Notes: generated by a model from the letters alone, not told the origin. A DNA stretch of 64,000 bases from Escherichia coli (GCF_048403405.1 NZ_CP183131.1), one strand, 5' to 3'. Shown: positions 2,673 through 14,879, counted from the stretch's first letter. Made by a program: numbers and translations.

Positions 2673-2948
2673 TTAAAAGTAAAAATCCTCCAGCTCTTCA
2701 TGGTCAGGCTTTCGCTCAACTGGTCGAAGCAACTCAGCTTCATCAGCGAACTCAAGCTCAGGATGAAAAGCAGGATGAAATCCTCGATGCCAGACTGGAC
2801 GGTCATTATCGAGGTCTAAGTAGCAGTGCCTCCCACTGGCTGGGTGATAGCAGTAAAGCCACTGTCTACCACTAACGGTAAACGGCTTCTCTGCACCTCC
2901 ACATGCCGGTACAAGGTTATCTGCTGCTATATGCGCTACAGCATCCAT
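2673..2948 (-). CDS. hypothetical protein with acidic-aromatic C-terminus (..ELEDFYF)
   Basis: ORF track 2673..2996; start moved to ATG after GAGGA; C-terminal tail read from track. Confidence 0.45.
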   Translation of the reverse strand: MDAVAHIAADNLVPACGGAEKPFTVSGRQWLYCYHPASGRHCYLDLDNDRPVWHRGFHPAFHPELEFADEAELLRPVERKPDHEELEDFYF

Positions 2949-4135: not shown

Positions 4136-5020
4136 CTACTCAGCAAGTGCATAGACACCTACCTCGATGCGAATAAAGAACCTGGCATCTTGAAGAACTT
4201 GCCTGACCTTTGCTTGCCAGTGGTTGTTCTCTCGATGCTTTGCGTAGGGTTCAATCTCTTTGTAAATCTGCTCCAGCTTCAACGTTTTCCCCTGTAGGGT
4301 TCGGCGTATTGCAGCTTTCCACGTAGTCGAAACCATATTGGTTGCTCGACGGTGTACGGCAGCAAGAAGACAGAGCGATGAGGCAACGTCGTTACGACGA
4401 AACACCAACAGCTTTTCATGGGCGATACGCACCAGCTTCCCGGAATACTGAGTTCGGTCACTCACACAGTTGTGCTGTGTTTTGATGATCTCATCCACCA
4501 GCTTCCCAGGTGCGATACGTTCCACAAGGCTGGACAGGTTGAAATAATCCCCATCGCGCCTCAGGTTTCCCATGAGGATTCCGTAATGCCCTCCTCGCTC
4601 ACAGGCGTCATGAATATTCATAACGGCCAGCTCAAGGGCTTCAACGAACTCAGGCAAATTCATGCGGCTCATATCCCATTTGTTGGGCTCGCCCCACTGC
4701 TTACCTGAATACTGGATCATGTCCCAGTAAGGAGGGTGCCACCAGATCAGGTGTGCAGGCTCTCCGAGGAACGAAAGGAAGTCATCCCGCAACAGGTTGA
4801 ACCCCTGATGCAAGTCTGTCCCTTTGAAACGGACACCAAGTTCATTGGCAACGTCGATGCTAGAGCCACCCCCAACACTTGGGTCTGCCACCAGCCCGTT
4901 CGGCTTTCTCATGTAAGACTCAATGAAGTCTTTAACGATAAAGCCCGAGCAGTTGCCTCGGTACTTGTTGTTTCCGTAAGGCCCCCTGTTTTCGTAGGAG
5001 CATACTGATGATTTGAACAT
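4136..5020 (-). CDS. DNA amino-methyltransferase (N6A/N4C type, motif I before PPY)
   Basis: ADPSVGGGSS (motif I-like) then WWHPPYWD (motif IV PPY); RBS GGAGGA before MFKSS; ORF track 4136..5059. Confidence 0.6.
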   Translation of the reverse strand: MFKSSVCSYENRGPYGNNKYRGNCSGFIVKDFIESYMRKPNGLVADPSVGGGSSIDVANELGVRFKGTDLHQGFNLLRDDFLSFLGEPAHLIWWHPPYWDMIQYSGKQWGEPNKWDMSRMNLPEFVEALELAVMNIHDACERGGHYGILMGNLRRDGDYFNLSSLVERIAPGKLVDEIIKTQHNCVSDRTQYSGKLVRIAHEKLLVFRRNDVASSLCLLAAVHRRATNMVSTTWKAAIRRTLQGKTLKLEQIYKEIEPYAKHRENNHWQAKVRQVLQDARFFIRIEVGVYALAE

Positions 5021-5093
5021 GGCGTCCTCCATCATAGATGGGGCGCACCATGCTCCCATCAGGGGCCGGTTCGCCCCTGGTTAGGGATTAAGA

Positions 5094-6885: not shown

Positions 6886-8682
6886 TTAAGCTGCAAAAGC
6901 AGTCAATGACCGCTCCATCAACTTAAACAGTGTGCGTTGCAGAGCTGCCGCATCATCAATGACAATGTTCTTTTGGAACAGTCCTGACACTGCGGTAGTC
7001 TCTACCCCTATGCCGATCACCTCAACATCGCTTCGTTCACAGAGGTCAATCACTGAGCGACATGCCGGGGCGCTTTGAGGCTGCCCGTCAGTCACTACGA
7101 TCAACATTTTTCGCTCTTCACGGGTCTTGGTGAGTTCAAAAGCTGCATACCACATAGCTTCCGCCATAGGCGTACCGCCAGTTGCTTTGAACCCAAACCG
7201 ACCGGCCCGATTCTGAACCGTATCTCCATGCTTCACGACACTGAACACTGGCTGGTTCCGGTTGCCACCAAAAAAGGTGACTGCCGGGTTTACGCCGGGT
7301 ATTGCTTCCAGAGCCATCGAAATAGCCAAGGACGCTTCCCGCGCAATGTCTTGACGCTCCTTTCCATTGGCGGCCTTGTAGGCCATCGAGGAGCTCATAT
7401 CAACCAGGATGTGAACCGCCGTATTAGGGCGTTTCTTGGCTTCCGGCTTGAGGAATACGCGGGTATCACCCGTCACTACACGATGTAGTTTCCGAGCATC
7501 CACACGCTTCCCTGATCGTTGGTTACGGTGAGCAACTCGCTGGCTGGCCTGGACCAATCCGTAGAGCTGCGTTCTTATCTTTGAAGTGGTGCTCTTCACA
7601 TCCCCTACCAGGCTTTTGCCAACAGCAGGGTTGTCCTGGGTGTTCACAGCAGAGCGAACAGTCATATAGCTACTGTCCCCCTTATCTTGAGCCACCCGGT
7701 TGAGCTCGGCTTTAAGTGCATCATGCGCGTCACCACGCAAATCACCGGCACCGGCATTCAGAACCTGCTGGAGCATTTTGGCCGCGTCTTGTTTCGCCGC
7801 GTCAGAATTGCCACCAGCCTGGCTTTGTCCTGCCTTGCTGCCACCATCAGTATCCGACTTGCCTTGGTCGCCCTGTCCTTTCGGATCAGATTTCCCGTTA
7901 GCATCGTCTTGCTTCTGGTCTTTACCTTGCTGATCACCACCATTGGCATCAGGCCCTTGGTTTTGATCGTTACCACTTCCGCCCTGACTGTTCTGAGGTT
8001 GGTTGCCACCAGCATTCTGCTGGTTGTTACCATCCTGACCATTCAGGGGCTTTTGCTCTTCTTTCTCCTTTTCCTCCTCGATCATCTTGATGATTTGGTC
8101 GGCCAAGGATGTCACCTCTGCGGTTGACTTAGTGTTCACAGCCTTACGCAGTAAAGCGTTCAGCCGAACAACAACACCCTGAGGGAACACGCGCTCGAAT
8201 ACGGGGGTAGCCGAATCGAGATAGGGTTGAAGGACGGATTGCCCTACAGCCTTGGTTTGCAACCAGTACAAACAAAACCCTGTCAGAATGGAGGCAGGGG
8301 CCTCTTTGTCTGTGACGTGCTCGTAATGACCAGCTTGAGCCATATAGCGAGCAACCTCATTCAGGGTCTGCGACGTACCGGGGAAGAGTTCCATCATGGC
8401 CCGTTCTATGCGGCAGTCCTCCAAAACGTTGGACAACTCAGCATGAAGACCTCTGCGGCGCTCAACACCAAAGTCCGTAAACCGGACATGGGCTGCTTCA
8501 TGGGCCAAATACCCCCAGACAGCATCCATGTGAGGATAGTCGTCGGGGATATTCGGAACCACGATGGTCTTACCATCGGTGTATGCGTCATCGTTACCGA
8601 TGGCGACTTTGACACCGAGTTTTTCACCATAGGCTGCGGCCACGATTGGTAGAGCGCTGTAAATGGTGCGTTTTTTGGACAT
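6886..8682 (-). CDS. von Willebrand factor A domain protein (CobT-like) with long Q/G/D-rich disordered linker
   Basis: C-terminal MIDAS-like DMSSSM in a vWA-like segment; low-complexity middle; RBS CAGGAGAAAAGAT. Confidence 0.75.
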   Translation of the reverse strand: MSKKRTIYSALPIVAAAYGEKLGVKVAIGNDDAYTDGKTIVVPNIPDDYPHMDAVWGYLAHEAAHVRFTDFGVERRRGLHAELSNVLEDCRIERAMMELFPGTSQTLNEVARYMAQAGHYEHVTDKEAPASILTGFCLYWLQTKAVGQSVLQPYLDSATPVFERVFPQGVVVRLNALLRKAVNTKSTAEVTSLADQIIKMIEEEKEKEEQKPLNGQDGNNQQNAGGNQPQNSQGGSGNDQNQGPDANGGDQQGKDQKQDDANGKSDPKGQGDQGKSDTDGGSKAGQSQAGGNSDAAKQDAAKMLQQVLNAGAGDLRGDAHDALKAELNRVAQDKGDSSYMTVRSAVNTQDNPAVGKSLVGDVKSTTSKIRTQLYGLVQASQRVAHRNQRSGKRVDARKLHRVVTGDTRVFLKPEAKKRPNTAVHILVDMSSSMAYKAANGKERQDIAREASLAISMALEAIPGVNPAVTFFGGNRNQPVFSVVKHGDTVQNRAGRFGFKATGGTPMAEAMWYAAFELTKTREERKMLIVVTDGQPQSAPACRSVIDLCERSDVEVIGIGVETTAVSGLFQKNIVIDDAAALQRTLFKLMERSLTAFAA

Positions 8683-8766
8683 ATCTTTTCTCCTGGTAGG
8701 GAAGGAGATAGTCCACCCCTGGAGGGAATGGCTATCCCCTCCGGGTCGGTTTAGTTGAAGTGACTA

Positions 8767-10044
8767 TTAGAAGAAATAGTCGCCATCGTCGTCAGTTTTA
8801 GGCAGCTCCTGGTTGAGAGGCTCCTCTGTCGGCTCCTCTTGGACAGGCTCTTGCTCTACCGGAGTTTCCTCAGGCAAAACCGGCTCATCCTCAACATCAA
8901 CGCGCTCTTCTCGAACCACATCACCGGCATTGGATTCATCTTCCGATTCACCCTCGCCTCGTTCTGCAAAACTCTTGAAGAAGTTGTCGATGTCTTCATC
9001 CAGGTCAACAGCGTTACCACCGCTGTTAGTCTGTTCTGATTGAACAGATTCAGTACCACCTACCTGTTGCTGCTTGGTTTCGCCACCCTCTGTTGCAGGG
9101 ATAAGCTCACCGGCTTTATCGCTTTTCTGTTCGGCCTTTTCATCTTTAGAACGGTCCCCCATCTGGGCTCCCGAACCGCCAATGTCATTAGCCATGCCCT
9201 CTACAGTAATCGAGCCATTGGCATACTGCTCGATGCGGTCCCTCTCGCTCATGATCAGCACTGCGGCCACGACCTGATAAAAGAAAGGCGCAACGATGTT
9301 TCGGCCATCGGCATGTTGCTCGTATCCCCGGAGGGTTTGGTCGAGCAGCTTGACCAGAGGGTTAAAAGCGCTGTTCAGGAAGCTAAGCCCATCCACCTTG
9401 TCGCGGATGTTACGGAGTGTCTGCCGAGTAGTGACCGCACATTGGTCTCGACCGGCCAAACGTTCCATATAGAACTTATTCGCTTCCTGAACCACTTCGG
9501 AGATGAGATCGTCACCCAAGCGCTCAACCTTGCGGTTAAGGCGTTTGGCGTTGGCCTCATCTTCGTTCACAGGCTGGATCATGAACACCTGGTACTCAAA
9601 GCCAATCCGCTCCTCGACCGTTTCCTTTGGAAGGGCTCCGGCACGGATAGCTCGTTCATACTCAGGGTTCTCCTGACACCATTCATCCACGGCTTTGTTG
9701 TAACCTTTGATGAAATCCTGTTTCAGTTGGTTAAACTGAAAGTTTATGTCATTCAGCTTGTTACAGATTTCATCGGTCTTGCTGACGGGTACGGCAAATC
9801 CGTTCATGAACGGCATACCGAATTTCAGCAGGAGGCGACGAGTTTCTGTTTTCAGGCGATGAAAGCCTTTCAGCTTAGCCGGATCACAGATCTTCTTACT
9901 TCCCAGTTGAGCTACTTTCTCAGGTGGAATTTCACCACCCTCGCCCAGCTTGAGATCAGATGCAGACAAACGGGTTTGTCCACTCCAGATGTCAAAGTCT
10001 ACGTGGATAACACAGAGGCTTTGTAGATGGTTCACTTTAGTCAT
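8767..10044 (-). CDS. hypothetical protein with E/P-rich acidic tail ending DDDGDYFF
   Basis: ORF track 8767..10056; start moved to ATG after GGAGTGCATC. Confidence 0.55.
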   Translation of the reverse strand: MTKVNHLQSLCVIHVDFDIWSGQTRLSASDLKLGEGGEIPPEKVAQLGSKKICDPAKLKGFHRLKTETRRLLLKFGMPFMNGFAVPVSKTDEICNKLNDINFQFNQLKQDFIKGYNKAVDEWCQENPEYERAIRAGALPKETVEERIGFEYQVFMIQPVNEDEANAKRLNRKVERLGDDLISEVVQEANKFYMERLAGRDQCAVTTRQTLRNIRDKVDGLSFLNSAFNPLVKLLDQTLRGYEQHADGRNIVAPFFYQVVAAVLIMSERDRIEQYANGSITVEGMANDIGGSGAQMGDRSKDEKAEQKSDKAGELIPATEGGETKQQQVGGTESVQSEQTNSGGNAVDLDEDIDNFFKSFAERGEGESEDESNAGDVVREERVDVEDEPVLPEETPVEQEPVQEEPTEEPLNQELPKTDDDGDYFF

Positions 10045-10065
10045 GATGCACTCCAAAAAGTTGGG

Positions 10066-10186
10066 GGCGCACCACGTCCCGAACCGGGCGGATGCGCCCG
10101 GTTGGGCTAGTAAATTAACGTTAATTTGCTGTTTGTTTTTGGCGACCAGCTATCGCACTTTTCGCTCTCCGAAGAGAACAAAATCT
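10066..10186 (-). repeat. conserved 121-bp upstream module, copy 1 (identical to 14901..15021)
   Basis: 121 bp identical by direct reading; contains hairpin CCGGGCG-N4-CGCCCGG and palindrome AAATTAACGTTAATTT. Confidence 0.85.
10112..10127. promoter_or_regulatory. 16-bp perfect palindrome AAATTAACGTTAATTT (operator-like) inside module copy 1
   Basis: Read directly. Confidence 0.5.
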
Positions 10187-10243
10187 TGCTTTCCGTTGGA
10201 GACTCCCAGAATCCCCAAGGGAAAGCGGGGGAAAATCCCCCAC

Positions 10244-11254
10244 TCACCAGTAGAACGTCTCTACTTCTTCCGGCAAATCATCAAGAGGAGCAAGCACGTC
10301 CTCATCAACAATGTACCGTGGCTTCACAGAGCCAGTAACCGTTACACGGCACCGCTCTGATGACTTCTCTCTGTACTGGTCAACATCCTCAGGCTTCACG
10401 CCTGACGCCTTATCAGCCAACAGCTTTTTGTAGTCTACCCGGCCAGCCGCTTTGTATCTCGTTACCATCACACCGCAGTAGTCGGCATGGAAGTATTCCC
10501 CCATGAGGGACTTCATGGTGTCGAGATGAGGCTTTTGCCTTTCTTGAAGCTCAGACAGTCGCTGTTTCAGCTCCTGAATCTCAGCATCATAGAGGCGGTA
10601 TTCCTCAGCAGCAGCAATCCAACGGTTGACCTCTTCACCTTGCGGTATGTACAGGTCTCTCTCTGGATCTTTGTCGGGCTCCTTCTTGTCTACTACCTGT
10701 TGCCAGAACTTTTTAGCCTCGGCCAAGATTTCTTGAATCATGGCTTCGTCTCGGAGTATTGGAAACTCCTGAATCTGACCTTCAAAGTAGAAGACTAACC
10801 AGCCTTGCTTGGCCCCCGTTACCAGGAGCTGGTGTTGCACCTGCGGGTAATAAAGCTGGTATGCCTTGCTGTTTGCTTTCTCAGCACAAACATCTTCCCA
10901 GACAGTCGCACTCGGGCTTTTCAGCTCGACGGGCTCCCCGTTATCTCTCAGGCCATCCAGGGAGGCCCTCATGAGCGGGTATTGAACCGATTCGACACAG
11001 GCGGGGAGCAGCATGTCATCATACTTCTCCTCGAAAGCGCGTCTTGCAGCATCTTCGTTTTCTATCCCCCGGCGAACCAGCGGATTAAGACTCAGATCGA
11101 CTTCACGCGCATACCCAGTCTTCTCGGCCCACAGTCTCCATCGTGTTTTGTACGGAGACCGATTGAGCAGGATAGCGGCGTCAGTGGCTGTTACACCTTG
11201 ACGCCGCCAATCAAGCCAATCTTCCTCTCGTTGCGATAGGTTGACTATTTTCAT
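10244..11254 (-). CDS. exo: alkaline exonuclease (lambda Exo / YqaJ-like) of ssb-bet-exo module; C-terminus ..EEVETFYW
   Basis: Size and gene order after bet as in SXT/IncC elements; RBS TGGAGAGAGG. Confidence 0.75.
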   Translation of the reverse strand: MKIVNLSQREEDWLDWRRQGVTATDAAILLNRSPYKTRWRLWAEKTGYAREVDLSLNPLVRRGIENEDAARRAFEEKYDDMLLPACVESVQYPLMRASLDGLRDNGEPVELKSPSATVWEDVCAEKANSKAYQLYYPQVQHQLLVTGAKQGWLVFYFEGQIQEFPILRDEAMIQEILAEAKKFWQQVVDKKEPDKDPERDLYIPQGEEVNRWIAAAEEYRLYDAEIQELKQRLSELQERQKPHLDTMKSLMGEYFHADYCGVMVTRYKAAGRVDYKKLLADKASGVKPEDVDQYREKSSERCRVTVTGSVKPRYIVDEDVLAPLDDLPEEVETFYW

Positions 11255-11316
11255 GGACCTCTCTCCAATGGTTAGGAGGGAGATCTCCCCCAGCGGGGGA
11301 GTCCCCCCCGTTGGGG

Positions 11317-12306
11317 TTAGTAGTAACTGCCTTCCGCGCCCTCCTCTTCTGTAACAGGGATCATGTCCTCGTCACTCAAAGGCGGCATTTCTTCGGCACC
11401 AGGTTCAGCATTTGCAGAACCACCAGCGGCGGACTCTTGCTCGTGCGCTTCCTGGTAGTCAGGTTTCGGAGGCTCCATTTGATCCATCTCCTTGTCACGA
11501 AGGAATTGAGTCGCATATTGCAGTTCCGAACCTTCATACCGTCCCTTCACATACTCATGCGCCGCAGACCATGCGTTTTCAGCAATGGCGCGATTTGCGA
11601 GTTTGGTTAGGATCGGGTCAAGCTCTTTGTGCTCAATAGCCAAAGGCTCTTGGCTTTGAACTTGAGATGGTGAAGGGAGATTGGCAATAGCCGGGTTAAT
11701 GGCCGATGCCTGCTCCATTTCACGGATGCGTTCAGCTTCATCCTGGTCATAAATACCAGAGAAACCAAATGCGACACGAGAACACTGGATCAGCGACTTG
11801 TGCCGGAGTTGACGCTTGGTGTGCGTTTGCCAGGGGCCATCAACAGTGTAAGCACCATTGCGACCTTGACCCTGAAACGGTTCACGGTACACCTCATCAA
11901 TGAACTCCTTGATGCGGATAGGGCGAGATCTGTCCTTACGGTAAATCACGCATTCAATCCACTCAGGGCAGTCAACTTTCGCCCCCTGCATTCTGACCAT
12001 CTTGTCCGAATACACGAACTCGACGCCATCATACTGGGGATGCTCGTTGATGATGCGGCTCCAACCATCAACACCTACTACCGGAATGATCCCATTTTGC
12101 TTGTCAGGAAACGCATAGATTTCCCGAGTGAAAGGGTTCAAACCGTACTGTTCAGCCACGATCAGGAGCGTCATCATCTGCTCATCGGTCGGGGCACTTC
12201 CATCTCGCTGCTTGAATGCGGTCGCCTTCAAAGTTTCATAGAACTTTCGGGTGTCCACGCCAAACCGGCTTGCGATACGGGTTACAAGAGATTTGTTATC
12301 AGACAT
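11317..12306 (-). CDS. bet: single-strand annealing protein (Bet/RecT-type); C-terminus ..EEEGAEGSYY
   Basis: ORF track 11317..12348; start moved to MSDNK after RBS GGAGA; position between ssb and exo. Confidence 0.75.
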   Translation of the reverse strand: MSDNKSLVTRIASRFGVDTRKFYETLKATAFKQRDGSAPTDEQMMTLLIVAEQYGLNPFTREIYAFPDKQNGIIPVVGVDGWSRIINEHPQYDGVEFVYSDKMVRMQGAKVDCPEWIECVIYRKDRSRPIRIKEFIDEVYREPFQGQGRNGAYTVDGPWQTHTKRQLRHKSLIQCSRVAFGFSGIYDQDEAERIREMEQASAINPAIANLPSPSQVQSQEPLAIEHKELDPILTKLANRAIAENAWSAAHEYVKGRYEGSELQYATQFLRDKEMDQMEPPKPDYQEAHEQESAAGGSANAEPGAEEMPPLSDEDMIPVTEEEGAEGSYY

Positions 12307-12400
12307 GGTGTTTCTCCAATTCACGAATGAACGGTTTGAGGACACCATGACCCCCTCGGGGCATGAGTGCCCCCGTGGGGTTTAGTAAGAGTTGGCGGTG

Positions 12401-12928
12401 TTACCCGCCAGCCAAGTGGTGCAGCCGCATGAACGGGATGTCATCATCCCAGCCATCAGGAGCGGGACCATAGCCTCCGCCCATACCACCTTGCGGTGCT
12501 GATTGCTGCACAGGAGCAGATTGCGTACCGGCTCCTGTACGTTGCCCTTTTTGGGGCGCTGCACGTTGAGAGTTGTCCTGAGGTGCATTTCCACGACCAC
12601 CAAGCATCTGCATTTCAACGCAGTGTACTTCGGTGGTGTAGCGCTCGATTTGTTGGCTGTCAGTCCACTTCCGGGTGCGGTTGCTCCCTTCGAGATAGAC
12701 TTGGGAGCCCTTTTTCAGGTACTCACCAGCGACTTCTGCCAAACGACCTTTAAGCACAATACGGTGCCACTCAGTATGCTCTCTTTGCTCGCCAGACTGC
12801 TTATCGCGCCACGTATCCGTTGTTGCAACGTTGAAGTTGGCAACGGCAGTTCCGCTTGGCATGTAGCGAATTTCCGGGTCAGAACCGAGATTACCGACCA
12901 GAATTACTTTGTTGACGCCTTTAGACAT
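12401..12928 (-). CDS. ssb: single-stranded DNA-binding protein with 9-aa extension after DDDIPF
   Basis: N-terminus [15 protein letters not shown].., Gly-rich linker, DDDIPF then MRLHHLAGG before stop (verified by manual translation). Confidence 0.9.
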
Positions 12929-12991
12929 CATGACCTCCAAGTTATTTGGAGAGGGCCAACGCCCCTTTCGGGGAGCAAGCCCCCGTAAGGG

Positions 12992-13900
12992 TTAAAAAAA
13001 GTGATCCTCTTGTTCGGCGTCGATCTCTGCCAGGCGAATCAGCTCAGATACAAGGCCAAGCCTTTCTGCATCTGCTCTTACTTCGTCGTAGCTGAAACCA
13101 AACCGTTCAATGAGGGGTTTTAGTGAATCAAAACGCTCGTAGTCGAAGGTATCACCCTGTTCATCACAGAATGCCACCAGCGGCTTCTCTACGTTTGAAA
13201 AGTCATCCGCGAAACGCTGTTGCAGGTAAACCAACATCAGCAGGGGTTTGTGACCATGTTCCGGGCGGAGTTCACCAGCGCCTTCCAGCGTAGCTGGATG
13301 GATAGTGTTTTCGCCTAGTCCAGTGCTAACCCCAAGCTCATAACCGCTGTCAGTACGCATCAGCACACTGGGTAGCAAGTCATTTGAGCCTTCGCTCCGA
13401 GCAACCTCAAAGCCGATTAAACCGGCTCCTTTGGCAAAAACCCCAGCAACAAAACCTTTGAAGAGGTTTATGTCACCTGGAGGTAACTCAGAGGGCGGAG
13501 ATAACAGCCAGTTGAGAGATCCCAAGCTGGCTGTTTGTCCGGCTGAAACATTCCCCCCTTCCAGCACCGTCTGTGTCTCTGCGTTTACCAGCACCTCATC
13601 CAGAAAGGTGTACCCCTGGCTGAGAAACTGTGACACATACTGGCTTTCTTTGTCCTTGTAGGACATTGGGATCGTGTCTGGGCCGTTAGCTTCAAAAGGT
13701 CCTTCGAGCTTTGTCTCAGACCAATTTTCAGCTTTCCCATCAGTGACGGTTCGGCGTAGCTCGACCATCGTGAATTGGCCTGGCTCCGAGGAGCTGGGCT
13801 CCCGGAGCAACTTGTAGCCAATGAAGACTTCTATTGTGGTTTCGTCATTGCCCCACTCTTTAGCAGTGTAACGACGGCACAAACAGTCATTTTTCTTCAT
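12992..13900 (-). CDS. hypothetical protein (302 aa) ending ..AEQEDHFF
   Basis: ORF track; RBS AAGGGG; 10-nt gap after the AAA+ gene. Confidence 0.55.
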   Translation of the reverse strand: MKKNDCLCRRYTAKEWGNDETTIEVFIGYKLLREPSSSEPGQFTMVELRRTVTDGKAENWSETKLEGPFEANGPDTIPMSYKDKESQYVSQFLSQGYTFLDEVLVNAETQTVLEGGNVSAGQTASLGSLNWLLSPPSELPPGDINLFKGFVAGVFAKGAGLIGFEVARSEGSNDLLPSVLMRTDSGYELGVSTGLGENTIHPATLEGAGELRPEHGHKPLLMLVYLQQRFADDFSNVEKPLVAFCDEQGDTFDYERFDSLKPLIERFGFSYDEVRADAERLGLVSELIRLAEIDAEQEDHFF

Positions 13901-13910
13901 GCGTCACCCC

Positions 13911-14879
13911 TTAGCGCCATTGGTCCCCGAACACATCCTTCGCAACACGCAGGATGGCTTCACGCTCCTCTTTGGCCGCACGGATAAGCAGAGCTTGATC
14001 CAGGGCGTATTCAAGAGCATTTGGGGCACCACGGAACGCTAGAGACAGTTTCGCCCAACGCACCAACGTCCGAGTGGACATGGTGACGCTGATCTGACCA
14101 TCTTCACCGTTTTCGCCAAGAAACAGTTTGCGGACCTGATTAGCAATCCGAACCATTCCCTTCCGCACATTTTCCGGAAGTTTCGGAGTAACACGGCCAA
14201 GAATGCTGAGTTCAGCTTCCTCATCCGCATACCCTACTTTGGTGAAACGATAGCGATCCATAGCTGCGAGGTTCTGCATCATCACCCCCTGGTACAAACC
14301 AGAAGCATCACCGGACCCCGTAGAGTTACCAGTAACGACCACACGAAACATCGGGTGCGGCTTGATGATTTCCCCGCCATTCTGAGCGATCACAAGGGGA
14401 CGCCCTTCAAGGACATCGTTGAGACCAGCCAGCTCGGCAGGGTCGGCCAAATCCACCTCGTTGATGAGGAGCAGATGACCTTCACGCATAGCGACTGCCA
14501 GAGGTCCATACATGAACTTCATGACAGGTGGTTGACCAGGCTTTTCCGCGACCAGAGCGTGATGTCCAATCAGATCTGTCAGCTCCATCCGCCCGTGGGC
14601 AGTGATTTGCTGAACAGGCCAGTTGAGACGACCAGCGATCTCGGTGATACCTGAGGTTTTGCCAGACCCGGTAGGGCCGGTTACGAACAATGCGTCACCG
14701 CCAGGCTCTTTGAGATAGGCCAAGACCTCTCGCAGAAACTCTTTGCGGAAAACGTAGTTGGTATCAGTGGCAGGGATGAAAGGGTTTGAACCGTCAGCGT
14801 AGCCGATGGCCGTTACCTTCTCCGGAATGCTGGGCATACCGAAAACCTTGCTTACTGAGAATTGAGAGTATTGAGACAT
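13911..14879 (-). CDS. AAA+ ATPase (CobS/MoxR-like)
   Basis: Walker A GPTGSGKT, Walker B LLLINEVD; RBS TAGGAGCGCACCT. Confidence 0.8.
   Translation of the reverse strand: MSQYSQFSVSKVFGMPSIPEKVTAIGYADGSNPFIPATDTNYVFRKEFLREVLAYLKEPGGDALFVTGPTGSGKTSGITEIAGRLNWPVQQITAHGRMELTDLIGHHALVAEKPGQPPVMKFMYGPLAVAMREGHLLLINEVDLADPAELAGLNDVLEGRPLVIAQNGGEIIKPHPMFRVVVTGNSTGSGDASGLYQGVMMQNLAAMDRYRFTKVGYADEEAELSILGRVTPKLPENVRKGMVRIANQVRKLFLGENGEDGQISVTMSTRTLVRWAKLSLAFRGAPNALEYALDQALLIRAAKEEREAILRVAKDVFGDQWR

Follow-up and report, generated by a model that had tools for sequence, protein, structure and literature searches.

Why should proteins of unrelated families, encoded close together on one plasmid backbone, end in the same short run of acidic residues followed by two aromatic ones? 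The question arises from a stretch of 64,000 nucleotides of Escherichia coli DNA (GCF_048403405.1 NZ_CP183131.1), here called the window, which is an IncC plasmid backbone matching 727 plasmid records at 99% or more, one of them typed IncC, MOBH, MPF_F. The seven consecutive leftward genes in Table 1 are the published hde (host defence evasion) operon, vcrx089-vcrx093, followed by vcrx094 and vcrx095; the order AAA+, 302-aa protein, ssb, bet, exo adjoins traN. The operon was described on the IncC plasmid pVCR94 together with its SXT/R391 counterparts (Roy et al. 2020, PMC7498323), and the locus is the same one: the backbone shares at least 99% identity with IncC plasmids, and the genes are likewise an AAA+ ATPase (AAA_5 and CbbQ_C domains; PMC7498323), a protein lacking Pfam domains, ssb, bet and exo beside traN. 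The gene calls and coordinates of the initial annotation hold on re-checking, and all genes lie on the minus strand.

Table 1. Coordinates of the genes and of their diagnostic motifs in the window.
Feature	Position	Strand	Remarks
Vcrx089-like MoxR-class AAA+ ATPase	13911..14879	-	322 aa; CobS/NorQ/CbbQ-like; Walker A GPTGSGKT 14655-14678; Walker B LLLINEVD 14451-14474; no tail
Vcrx090-like protein	12992..13900	-	302 aa; ends EQEDHFF, tail 12995-13015
Plasmid SSB	12401..12931	-	DDDIPF 12431-12448, then MRLHHLAGG 12404-12430
Bet, Red-beta-like annealase	11317..12306	-	ends EGAEGSYY, 11320-11343; TIGR01913, PHROG 252
Exo, YqaJ/lambda-exonuclease family	10244..11254	-	tail EEVETFYW 10247-10270; TIGR03033, PHROG 434
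DUF3150 protein (vcrx094)	8767..10044	-	425 aa; tail DDDGDYFF 8770-8793; internal helix DEDIDNFF 8977-9000
CobT/NorD-like vWA adaptor (vcrx095)	6886..8682	-	Pfam VWA and CobT; HEAAH 8488-8502; NVLEDCRIE 8404-8430; MIDAS motif DMSSS 7387-7401; C-terminus TAFAA 6889-6903; no tail
Small protein, function unknown	2673..2948	-	91 aa; tail ELEDFYF 2676-2696

The hde phenotypes come from plasmids essentially identical to this one and consist of anti-restriction and CRISPR evasion in the recipient (PMC7498323, PMC11602122). In particular, vcrx089 and Vcrx090 counteract type I restriction (PMC7498323, PMC11602122) and ssb-bet-exo repairs the breaks made by Cas3 or restriction enzymes, the two groups being handled as separate modules (PMC7498323). 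The published accounts of the locus that were consulted do not mention shared C-terminal tails and give neither function nor phenotype for vcrx094 and vcrx095. The initial annotation had taken a machine of this kind to be undescribed in these elements, which is incorrect for the operon and apparently right for the tails and for the roles of the last two genes; the operon is known, and the shared tail appears to be new. In what follows, the anti-restriction and double-strand-break-repair phenotypes and the C-terminal docking in NorQD are taken from the literature, while gene identity, conservation and specificity of the tails, their co-occurrence with AAA+/vWA genes and the Exo-AAA+ fusion come from the present analysis.

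The Vcrx090-like protein, Bet, Exo, the DUF3150 protein and the 91-aa protein all terminate in a stretch rich in Asp or Glu and two aromatic residues, and all are acidic (pI 4.5-5.0). The motif was defined as an aromatic last residue, at least two aromatics in the last three positions and at least three D/E at positions -10 to -3; among the 483 ORFs of at least 40 aa in the window it is matched by these five only. Its frequency in internal 10-mers of 61 proxy genes, used as background, is 9/17,887 (5e-4), against which its occurrence at five of the 61 proxy-gene C-termini has a probability of 1.9e-10. Relaxing the requirement to two acidic residues adds only three further ORFs when all ORFs of at least 50 aa at 21 loci are considered. 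The relaxase TraI and the coupling protein TraD do not carry a tail of this type.

The five bearers belong to unrelated families, in which the motif forms the very end of the chain and the disordered linker before it varies. The Vcrx090-like protein, which matches nothing in Pfam, NCBIfam or PHROG, has a conserved C-domain some 190 aa long, which an N-domain may or may not precede; in Bet the tail is borne by an acidic disordered C-terminal extension; in the DUF3150 protein a folded N-domain (residues 1-295) is followed by an acidic disordered linker, the tail is not docked in cis, and the internal helix DEDIDNFF is conserved. The bearers thus number five and not six. The plasmid SSB is not one of them: its DDDIPF (residues 162-167) is not terminal and is followed by the nine residues MRLHHLAGG. 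SSB profiles stop at F167, about 720 IncC plasmids have the extension, and it is kept as MRLHPLEGG in an SSB of 56% identity.

Loss of the tails in homologues had been named as one result that would refute the proposal; in fact orthologues with as little as about 28-45% identity still have them. They recur at 20 genome loci and at further metagenome loci. For Vcrx090, Exo and DUF3150 conservation extends over 30+ loci, and for Bet it is partial. In 25 aligned Vcrx090 homologues the last residue is always F, position -2 is always F or Y and position -4 is D in 22, while among 12 Exo orthologues F/W is found at -1 in 10 and Y/F at -2 in 11. A di-aromatic end is retained across the DUF3150 family in 96 of 129 distant representatives at 50% identity, with a degenerate QYCLF in the module L027. 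Homologues of the 91-aa protein, at a Halomonas locus (ending PFYW) and an Alcaligenes locus (ending ESFFF), are built like it: the N-domain and the di-aromatic end are conserved, and the linker between them varies. The Bet tail is the least conserved, being terminal in about half of the orthologues; in three an FF/YF motif lies 2-8 residues from the end, several have no motif, and SXT's own Bet ends in LTQPLAS. The AAA+ and vWA proteins never bear the tail in the homologues of the examined loci.

The distribution of the tails follows the AAA+/vWA pair, also in distant modules, and this supports part of the initial interpretation. At L022, L024, L032 and L033 the AAA+ gene, a small tailed protein (ending DLYF, QTWF or DDCWF), a tailed DUF3150 protein (DFWF, SAWF or DYFF) and the vWA gene are all kept. 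L033 offers a minimal AAA+-DUF3150-vWA triad, devoid of ssb, bet and exo, which retains the tail EELDWFF and lies in a chromosomal region where transfer genes were not found within 10 kb. Judged from these loci, the module has a conserved core of four genes, for the AAA+, the small tailed protein, DUF3150 and the vWA protein, and the ssb-bet-exo genes, which had been described as bracketed by the pair, look like an insertion into this module. L032 also encodes a 746-aa Exo-linker-AAA+ fusion, in which Exo is fused and not tailed; the exact sequence occurs in 3 contigs, and a second member of its 90%-identity cluster in 1 more. This natural fusion ties Exo physically to the ATPase. The co-occurrence of tail, AAA+ and vWA could result in part from shared ancestry.

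The idea of one recombination machine is not supported. Deletion of ssb-bet-exo has no effect on transfer into a type I RM-positive recipient, whereas deletion of vcrx089-090 affects it, and ssb-bet-exo is not needed for AAA+/Vcrx090 anti-restriction in V. cholerae (PMC7498323); because anti-restriction is independent of ssb-bet-exo, the system is not a single obligate recombination machine. Moreover, SXT Bet and Exo recombineer on their own (PMC3118119, bioRxiv 130088), and tethering is therefore not essential for catalysis.

Both components of the pair resemble MoxR-class systems. The AAA+ protein matches PHROG 249 and, strongly in PDB sequence comparisons, the midasin AAA domains, CobS and NorQ; its Walker B reads INE in the IncC-like clade, with Asn in place of Asp, and DE in L019 and L032, and ATPase activity is predicted. 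The vWA protein combines an N-domain, a disordered low-complexity linker and a vWA domain whose MIDAS is intact, the architecture of a MoxR-class adaptor such as NorD or CobT. Among 120 homologues HExxH is found in 119 and DxSxS in all, the C-terminus being mostly AA, AV or VA; the domains are modelled by AF2 with a pLDDT of about 90, and the best Foldseek matches are NorD in NorQD complexes (E 8e-11) and the MIDAS domain of midasin. An aerobic cobaltochelatase CobS/CobT was rejected: the NCBIfam CobS model TIGR01650 scores 104.7 bits, far under its cutoff of 558.55, CobN is absent from the window and from related loci, and the context is a conjugative element.

The AAA+ protein is probably of the AAA_5/CbbQ_C type, as in NorQ-NorD, CobS-CobT(-CobN), CbbQ-CbbO and midasin. 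The C-terminus of NorD docks on NorQ, and removal of its last two residues abolishes the binding (PMC13036017); the adaptor at this locus likewise ends in small hydrophobic residues. This conserved C-terminus and the conserved gene linkage would fit a putative complex of AAA+ protein and adaptor, in which a finger enters the pore and the adaptor C-terminus rests on the post-sensor-1 loop. The present system differs from known MoxR/vWA machines in having no metal-cofactor target (no CobN, cNOR or Rubisco), in its anti-defence setting on a conjugative element, and in several putative clients with one common C-terminal peptide; in addition, its adaptor N-domain keeps an intact HExxH, and the IncC-like clade has Asn for the Walker B Asp. 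A looser resemblance is offered by Ku70/80, where a vWA domain in break repair reads short terminal peptides of several repair factors, and the Foldseek matches of the adaptor include the Ku80 vWA domain bound to an XLF motif. However, Ku is eukaryotic, uses basic-hydrophobic motifs and has no AAA+ partner, and no sign of homology was seen beyond the vWA fold.

Our preferred reading, held at about even odds, is that the tails dock on this CobS/NorQ-like motor of AAA+ and vWA proteins and not on SSB. The core would be a MoxR-class motor made of a Vcrx089 hexamer and the Vcrx095 adaptor, with the Vcrx090-like and DUF3150 proteins as two non-enzymatic companions, whose flexible acidic linker and free di-aromatic C-terminus would tether each bearer to the motor; the MIDAS face of the adaptor would be an alternative docking site. 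The same peptide has been acquired, within the IncC/SXT-like lineage, by Exo, by one or more small proteins and often by Bet, and defence neutralisation by AAA+/Vcrx090 and break repair by Exo/Bet would be brought together on the incoming plasmid DNA. One possible action of the motor is the stripping or remodelling of restriction or Cas complexes on DNA, after which Exo and Bet could act. Binding of the tails to the motor, its place and the motor action are all things that we infer. When the adaptor N-domain and vWA domain were modelled by AF2 in one fused chain between a scrambled tail and the real DUF3150 tail, a weak test with the adaptor alone and neither Mg2+ nor the AAA+ ring, the real tail had a pLDDT of about 36 and the scrambled one of 37-40, so that no contact was predicted. 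A common receptor would be favoured, on comparative grounds, by the Exo-AAA+ fusion and by the minimal triad of L033.

The initial annotation had placed SSB, or the replisome, at the hub, and the corresponding explanation, that the tails mimic SSB tips or ssDNA and bind either the pockets for SSB tips (in host repair or replisome proteins and in the C-terminal domain of Bet) or the cleft in which plasmid or host SSB holds ssDNA, seems to us unlikely, although it is the strongest of the rivals. The tails share with the SSB tip an acidic run, an aromatic residue and a free carboxylate on a disordered linker, much as in DDDIPF-COOH, itself a multi-partner docking peptide, and precedents exist in the terminal Phe of T7 gp2.5 and in the acidic-aromatic peptides that bind RPA70N. 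An ssb gene also lies within the operon, and the C-terminal domain of Red-beta has the tip of E. coli SSB as a ligand (Caldwell 2019, cited in PMC7498323). However, many tail-bearing loci (L004, L007-L011, L014 and L033) have no ssb in the operon, the DUF3150 tail follows AAA+/vWA family-wide even where ssb, bet and exo are absent, the IncC SSB tip is capped by its 9 residues, and the Exo-AAA+ fusion points to the ATPase. The SSB-tip type proper, [IL]-P-F-COOH on an SSB linker, was rejected for tails that lie on non-SSB proteins and have F/Y/W in place of the conserved Pro at -2. The polarity is also opposite, with many bearers and presumably one receptor. Host SSB is still a candidate partner.

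Less probable still is that the tails are C-terminal degrons, by which the AAA+ protein and its HExxH adaptor, a putative peptidase, would remove tailed proteins and limit recombinase and anti-defence activity to the time just after entry. C-terminal tags are a common degron type, the HExxH and NxxEDxRIE motifs of the adaptor N-domain are essentially invariant, and the N-domain of CobT has been described as M48C-peptidase-like (bioRxiv 10.64898/2026.07.21.739949). In the published NorQD and CobSTN structures, however, the motor remodels its target or inserts metal and degrades nothing; the requirement of Vcrx090 together with the AAA+ protein for anti-restriction (PMC7498323) fits a partner better than a substrate; and the Exo-AAA+ fusion would destroy itself. 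We regard as very unlikely a role as type IV secretion signals, sending the proteins into the recipient before gene expression. Acidic or hydrophobic C-terminal signals are found in Dot/Icm effectors, and the F TraD tail docks on TraM. At the examined loci the tailed families are mostly on conjugative elements, and the tailed proteins act in the recipient soon after entry (PMC7498323); but deletions of 089-090 or ssb-exo are complemented from the recipient and not from the donor (PMC7498323), neither TraI nor TraD is tailed, the L033 triad is chromosomal and apart from transfer genes, and DUF3150-fold proteins occur in phages too. A compositional coincidence among acidic disordered C-termini having no common partner is hardly credible: the general acidity of the bearers and the poor conservation of the Bet tail would agree with it, but it is effectively refuted by conservation, the last two positions being better conserved than any other part of linkers that otherwise vary, as well as by the chance probability of about 2e-10 within the window and by the scarcity of even the looser motif.

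Docking on the AAA+/vWA motor can be extended, more tentatively, to a multi-client anti-defence hub, in which the AAA+ protein and the vWA adaptor, maybe also a peptidase, would receive the exonuclease, the annealase, Vcrx090 as an anti-restriction adaptor, DUF3150 and small anti-defence proteins through [DE]n-aromatic-aromatic-COOH, clear incoming DNA of stalled restriction or Cas complexes by stripping or destroying them, and pass the ends to Exo and Bet. Among the main vehicles of multidrug resistance are IncC plasmids and SXT/R391 elements, whose host range the hde operon broadens by beating restriction and CRISPR; a shared docking peptide gives a cheap experimental handle, of two residues, on whether these proteins act as a single assembly and on which of them is the hub. 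It also raises the question whether anti-defence is a further task taken on by MoxR/vWA motors, which have so far been known to insert cofactors and reactivate enzymes. The labels cobS/cobT and 'porphyrin biosynthesis' on genes of plasmids and phages may be wrong and, if the hub exists as proposed, many 'cobS/cobT' annotations in plasmids, ICEs and phages would denote such motors and not cobalamin genes.

The seven co-directional genes adjoining traN are the published host-defence-evasion (hde) operon of the IncC plasmid pVCR94 (PMC7498323); 838 plasmid records match over the 8-kb stretch, with an identity of at least 99% in 727, and one matching record is typed as IncC, MOBH and MPF_F. Vcrx089, characterized by AAA_5 and CbbQ_C domains, protects together with Vcrx090 against type I restriction, while ssb/bet/exo repair Cas3-induced breaks, and the site of action of both gene sets is the recipient cell (PMC7498323). 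In a second study, the deletion of vcrx089-90 determines a 400–900-fold increase in EcoKI and EcoBI restriction, and the deletion of exo also makes the plasmid sensitive to several RM systems (PMC11602122). A primer in vcrx094, the DUF3150 gene, was used to trace the hde transcript (PMC7498323), and no functional statement on vcrx094 or on vcrx095, the vWA adaptor gene, was found in the literature on this locus; Pfam, NCBIfam, PHROG and PADLOC searches with Vcrx090, the DUF3150 protein and the small 91-aa protein gave nothing useful. Downstream of the module, a 307-aa protein is found at 70–80% identity in many related elements, and its homologue in one of them (L026) shows a faint N6_N4 methyltransferase Pfam match; on this basis the protein may be an orphan methylase aiding restriction evasion.

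Coordinates of the genes, motifs and related proteins discussed in the text (window positions unless a locus is named)
Feature	Position	Strand	Assigned by	C-terminus or motif
CobS/NorQ-like AAA+ ATPase	13911-14879	-	family searches	
AAA+ Walker B	14451-14474			LLLINEVD
302-aa protein (Vcrx090-like)	12992-13900	-	without family match	EQEDHFF
ssb	12401-12931	-	family searches	
SSB DDDIPF and extension	12404-12448			DDDIPF, then MRLHHLAGG
bet	11317-12306	-	family searches	EGAEGSYY
exo	10244-11254	-	family searches	EEVETFYW
DUF3150 protein	8767-10044	-	family searches	DDDGDYFF
DUF3150 second motif (residues 349-356)	8977-9000			DEDIDNFF
vWA protein with CobT-like N-domain	6886-8682	-	family searches	
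Adaptor N-domain motif region	8404-8502			HExxH
307-aa protein	4136-5059			
91-aa protein	2673-2948	-		ELEDFYF
Exo-AAA+ fusion, 746 aa	L032:2072-4312			
Small proteins (Alcaligenes, Halomonas)	L026:3420-3833; L026:5067-5318; L014:16026-16370			ESFFF or PFYW
Vcrx090 ORF, Providencia chromosome copy	L003:6146-7117			PLQITWRS
Vcrx090 ORF, viral-contig fragment	L028:1076-2047			PLQITWRS

The acidic-aromatic tails noticed in the initial annotation are confirmed on the Vcrx090-like protein, Bet, Exo, the DUF3150 protein and the 91-aa protein. With a fixed motif (last residue aromatic, at least two aromatics in the last three positions and at least three D/E between -10 and -3), these five are the only matches among the 483 window ORFs of at least 40 aa; the motif occurs at 5/61 C-termini of proxy genes and in 9 of the 17,887 internal 10-mers of the same 61 genes (P ~2e-10 against this background), and a chance resemblance is excluded. 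SSB does not belong to the tailed set: its DDDIPF is internal, so that the tailed proteins are five and not six, and the nine residues that follow leave the canonical SSB tip without a free carboxylate. About 720 IncC plasmids share the extension, which a 56%-identical SSB (L005/L006) keeps as MRLHPLEGG. In the related elements L031 and L032 the SSB ends normally in DDIPF, and in L002 its end is frameshifted.

The conservation of the tails was followed in 120 DUF3150 homologues and in another 129 representatives at 50% identity, taken from 1,689 significant clusters. The comparison also covered 20 genome loci surrounding DUF3150 genes, together with ten contexts from metagenomes or genomes. 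In 239 DUF3150 sequences, F or W occupies position -1 in 87% and F/Y/W position -2 in 79%; positions -4 to -8 are rich in acids, and the preceding linker ranges from almost nothing to ~200 residues. Vcrx090 homologues have in common only a C-terminal domain of ~190 aa, with an [FY]F end in 25/25 and D at -4 in 22/25. For Exo, a [YF][FW] end is shared by the orthologues of 10 of 12 lineages. The alignment suggested at the outset thus finds the tail kept in these three families and in about half of the Bet orthologues, with a shift of 2–8 residues in three more. Homologues of the 91-aa protein in Halomonas and Alcaligenes elements join a conserved N-domain through a variable linker to PFYW or ESFFF ends, and an unrelated 137-aa protein of the Alcaligenes element also ends in ESFFF. 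These three small proteins, two homologous to the 91-aa protein and one unrelated, lie downstream of the vWA gene, and the tailed set may be larger and vary between elements. Outside the tailed families a looser motif was met in only three ORFs (all ORFs of at least 50 aa in 21 loci), and a tail was never found on the AAA+ or vWA proteins among the homologues compared. In the Providencia and viral-contig copies the Vcrx090 ORF is extended to 323 aa and ends in PLQITWRS instead of EDHFF, which looks like a change at the extreme gene end that removes the tail.

In the AF2 model of the DUF3150 protein, an N-domain (residues 1-295, pLDDT >90) is followed by a disordered acidic linker and by the C-terminal tail, whose pLDDT of ~50 indicates that it does not fold back onto its own domain. 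The internal DEDIDNFF, predicted as a helix (pLDDT ~82), is nearly invariant across the family, and in short members the internal acidic-FF motif precedes the terminal FF by only ~12 residues. As modeled, this layout corresponds to that of a short linear motif on a tether. When the model was compared with viral structures, nine predicted phage proteins proved to have the same fold (E <1e-3; uncultured Caudovirales, Mycobacterium phage Dylan), and the AAA+ protein matches PHROG 249, labeled 'porphyrin biosynthesis'; some phage 'cobS/cobT' genes may be part of modules of this kind.

The PDB matches of the AAA+ protein are the midasin AAA domains, CobS and NorQ, and for the vWA domain of the adaptor the nearest matches are NorD, as seen in NorQD complexes, and the MIDAS domain of midasin. 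In NorQD the ring is plugged by a finger of the vWA domain. In CobSTN the small AAA+ subdomain is bound by the adaptor N-domain, a shaft is inserted into the ring and CobN, the client, is held between the adaptor N-domain and the MIDAS face (bioRxiv 10.64898/2026.07.21.739949). The plasmid adaptor has the same layout as the NorQD and CobSTN adaptors, with the MIDAS DxSxS intact in 120/120 homologues and a C-terminus that, as in NorD, is conserved and made of small hydrophobic residues (AA/AV/VA). In motors of this class a C-terminal peptide is known to dock on the AAA+ ring and client carboxylates are known to engage the MIDAS; either mode could read an acidic di-aromatic tail. A cobaltochelatase was rejected, as the CobS equivalog model, with a cutoff of 558.55, gives 104.7 bits and CobN is absent. 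The Walker B of the AAA+ protein carries Asn for the usual Asp throughout the IncC/SXT-like clade; the usual DE is kept by two distant homologues, the one in L019 and the AAA+ portion of the fusion in L032.

The conserved core across loci consists of AAA+, a small tailed protein, a tailed DUF3150 protein and vWA. L022 encodes an Exo lacking the tail, AAA+, a 181-aa Vcrx090-like protein ending in DLYF, DUF3150 ending in DFWF and vWA; L024 encodes AAA+, a 100-aa protein ending in QTWF and DUF3150 ending in SAWF; and L033, a chromosomal contig, has a bare AAA+/DUF3150/vWA triad (DUF3150 ending in EELDWFF) with ssb, bet and exo absent within 10 kb. In the metagenomic L032 operon, ordered SSB/RecT/fusion/Vcrx090-like/DUF3150/vWA, a natural YqaJ exonuclease-CobS-like AAA+ fusion replaces the Exo tail with a covalent link to the ATPase, and the tails of the Vcrx090-like (QDDCWF) and DUF3150 (EDEDYFF) proteins are kept. 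Residues 1-324 of the fusion align with IncC Exo 1-310 (36% identity, E 6e-67) and residues 427-739 with IncC AAA+ 7-321 (46% identity, E 5e-95), joined by a low-complexity linker of ~100 residues; three contigs carry the exact sequence, and one more carries another member of its 90%-identity cluster. From these gene orders we conclude that ssb-bet-exo probably sit within an older AAA+/X/DUF3150/vWA module, and that the fusion is Rosetta-stone-type evidence pointing to an Exo that works attached to the AAA+ protein. The bracketing of ssb-bet-exo by AAA+ and vWA would therefore reflect insertion into this module. P0275, an apparent RecT-vWA fusion, was discarded: known from a single E. coli record, with a junction from Bet ~residue 130 to vWA ~residue 160 and with exo and DUF3150 deleted, it looks like an IncC plasmid derivative with an in-frame bet::vWA deletion, and not like a genuine evolutionary fusion. 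When viral contigs were scanned with Exo, all that came up were fragments of this type of element, and tblastn of Exo against phage genomes gave homologues at ~28% identity whose alignments end before the tail region.

A single obligate recombination machine is ruled out because the ssb-exo deletion leaves transfer into an RM-positive, protospacer-free recipient unaffected whereas the 089-090 deletion, a polar one, affects it (PMC7498323), SXT Bet/Exo alone recombine DNA in E. coli and V. natriegens (PMC3118119, bioRxiv 130088), and SXT's own Bet has no tail. The proposal of SSB as the hub also fits poorly: mimicry of the SSB tip or of ssDNA by the tails is chemically plausible, but tailed loci without an operon ssb, the aromatic residue at -2, the bare triad and the Exo-AAA+ fusion speak against it; host SSB may be a partner of the tails, with low probability. 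A type IV secretion signal is weakened by the published failure of donor-side complementation, by TraI and TraD having no tail and by the triad occurring also away from transfer genes. That the tails are degrons seems improbable, since Vcrx090 behaves as a partner and not as a substrate; what prompts this reading is the adaptor N-domain, where H61, E62 and H65 of HExxH and N85, E88, D89 and E93 are present in 22/22 diverse homologues, and HExxH, accompanied by NxxEDxRIE, in 119/120. This looks like an intact zinc-metallopeptidase signature, the CobT counterpart is described as M48C-peptidase-like (bioRxiv 10.64898/2026.07.21.739949) and proteolysis by the adaptor is conceivable. Sequence searches of the PDB with the N-domain, as single sequence and as profile, reached neither CobT nor any peptidase.

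The suggested structure prediction of a tail against the vWA adaptor neither supported nor refuted binding to the isolated adaptor: in a fused chain (scrambled tail, linker, adaptor N-domain, linker, vWA domain, linker, real DUF3150 tail; shallow alignment of 30 rows, 24 paired by locus or contig) the adaptor domains were confident (pLDDT ~90), and the real tail (pLDDT 36) was no better placed than the scrambled one (37-40) in a model with artificial linkers and without metal ion or AAA+ ring. Of the two candidate receptors, the AAA+ ring would be the likelier because of the Exo-AAA+ fusion and of the NorD precedent, in which deletion of the last two residues abolishes NorQ binding (PMC13036017).

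The operon with its phenotypes and the MoxR/vWA architecture are already known, so the presumed novelty holds only in part: no description of the shared conserved C-terminal motif, of the family-wide DUF3150 tail, or of the four-gene core module and the Exo-AAA+ fusion was found in open-access papers and bioRxiv. We give about even chances to the tails serving as docking peptides by which Vcrx090-like proteins and DUF3150 are tethered to the AAA+/vWA motor, as would be, in the IncC/SXT-like lineage, Exo, small accessory proteins and often Bet. The published phenotypes would agree with a motor that removes or remodels stalled restriction or Cas complexes on the incoming DNA and whose action is coupled to the processing of ends.
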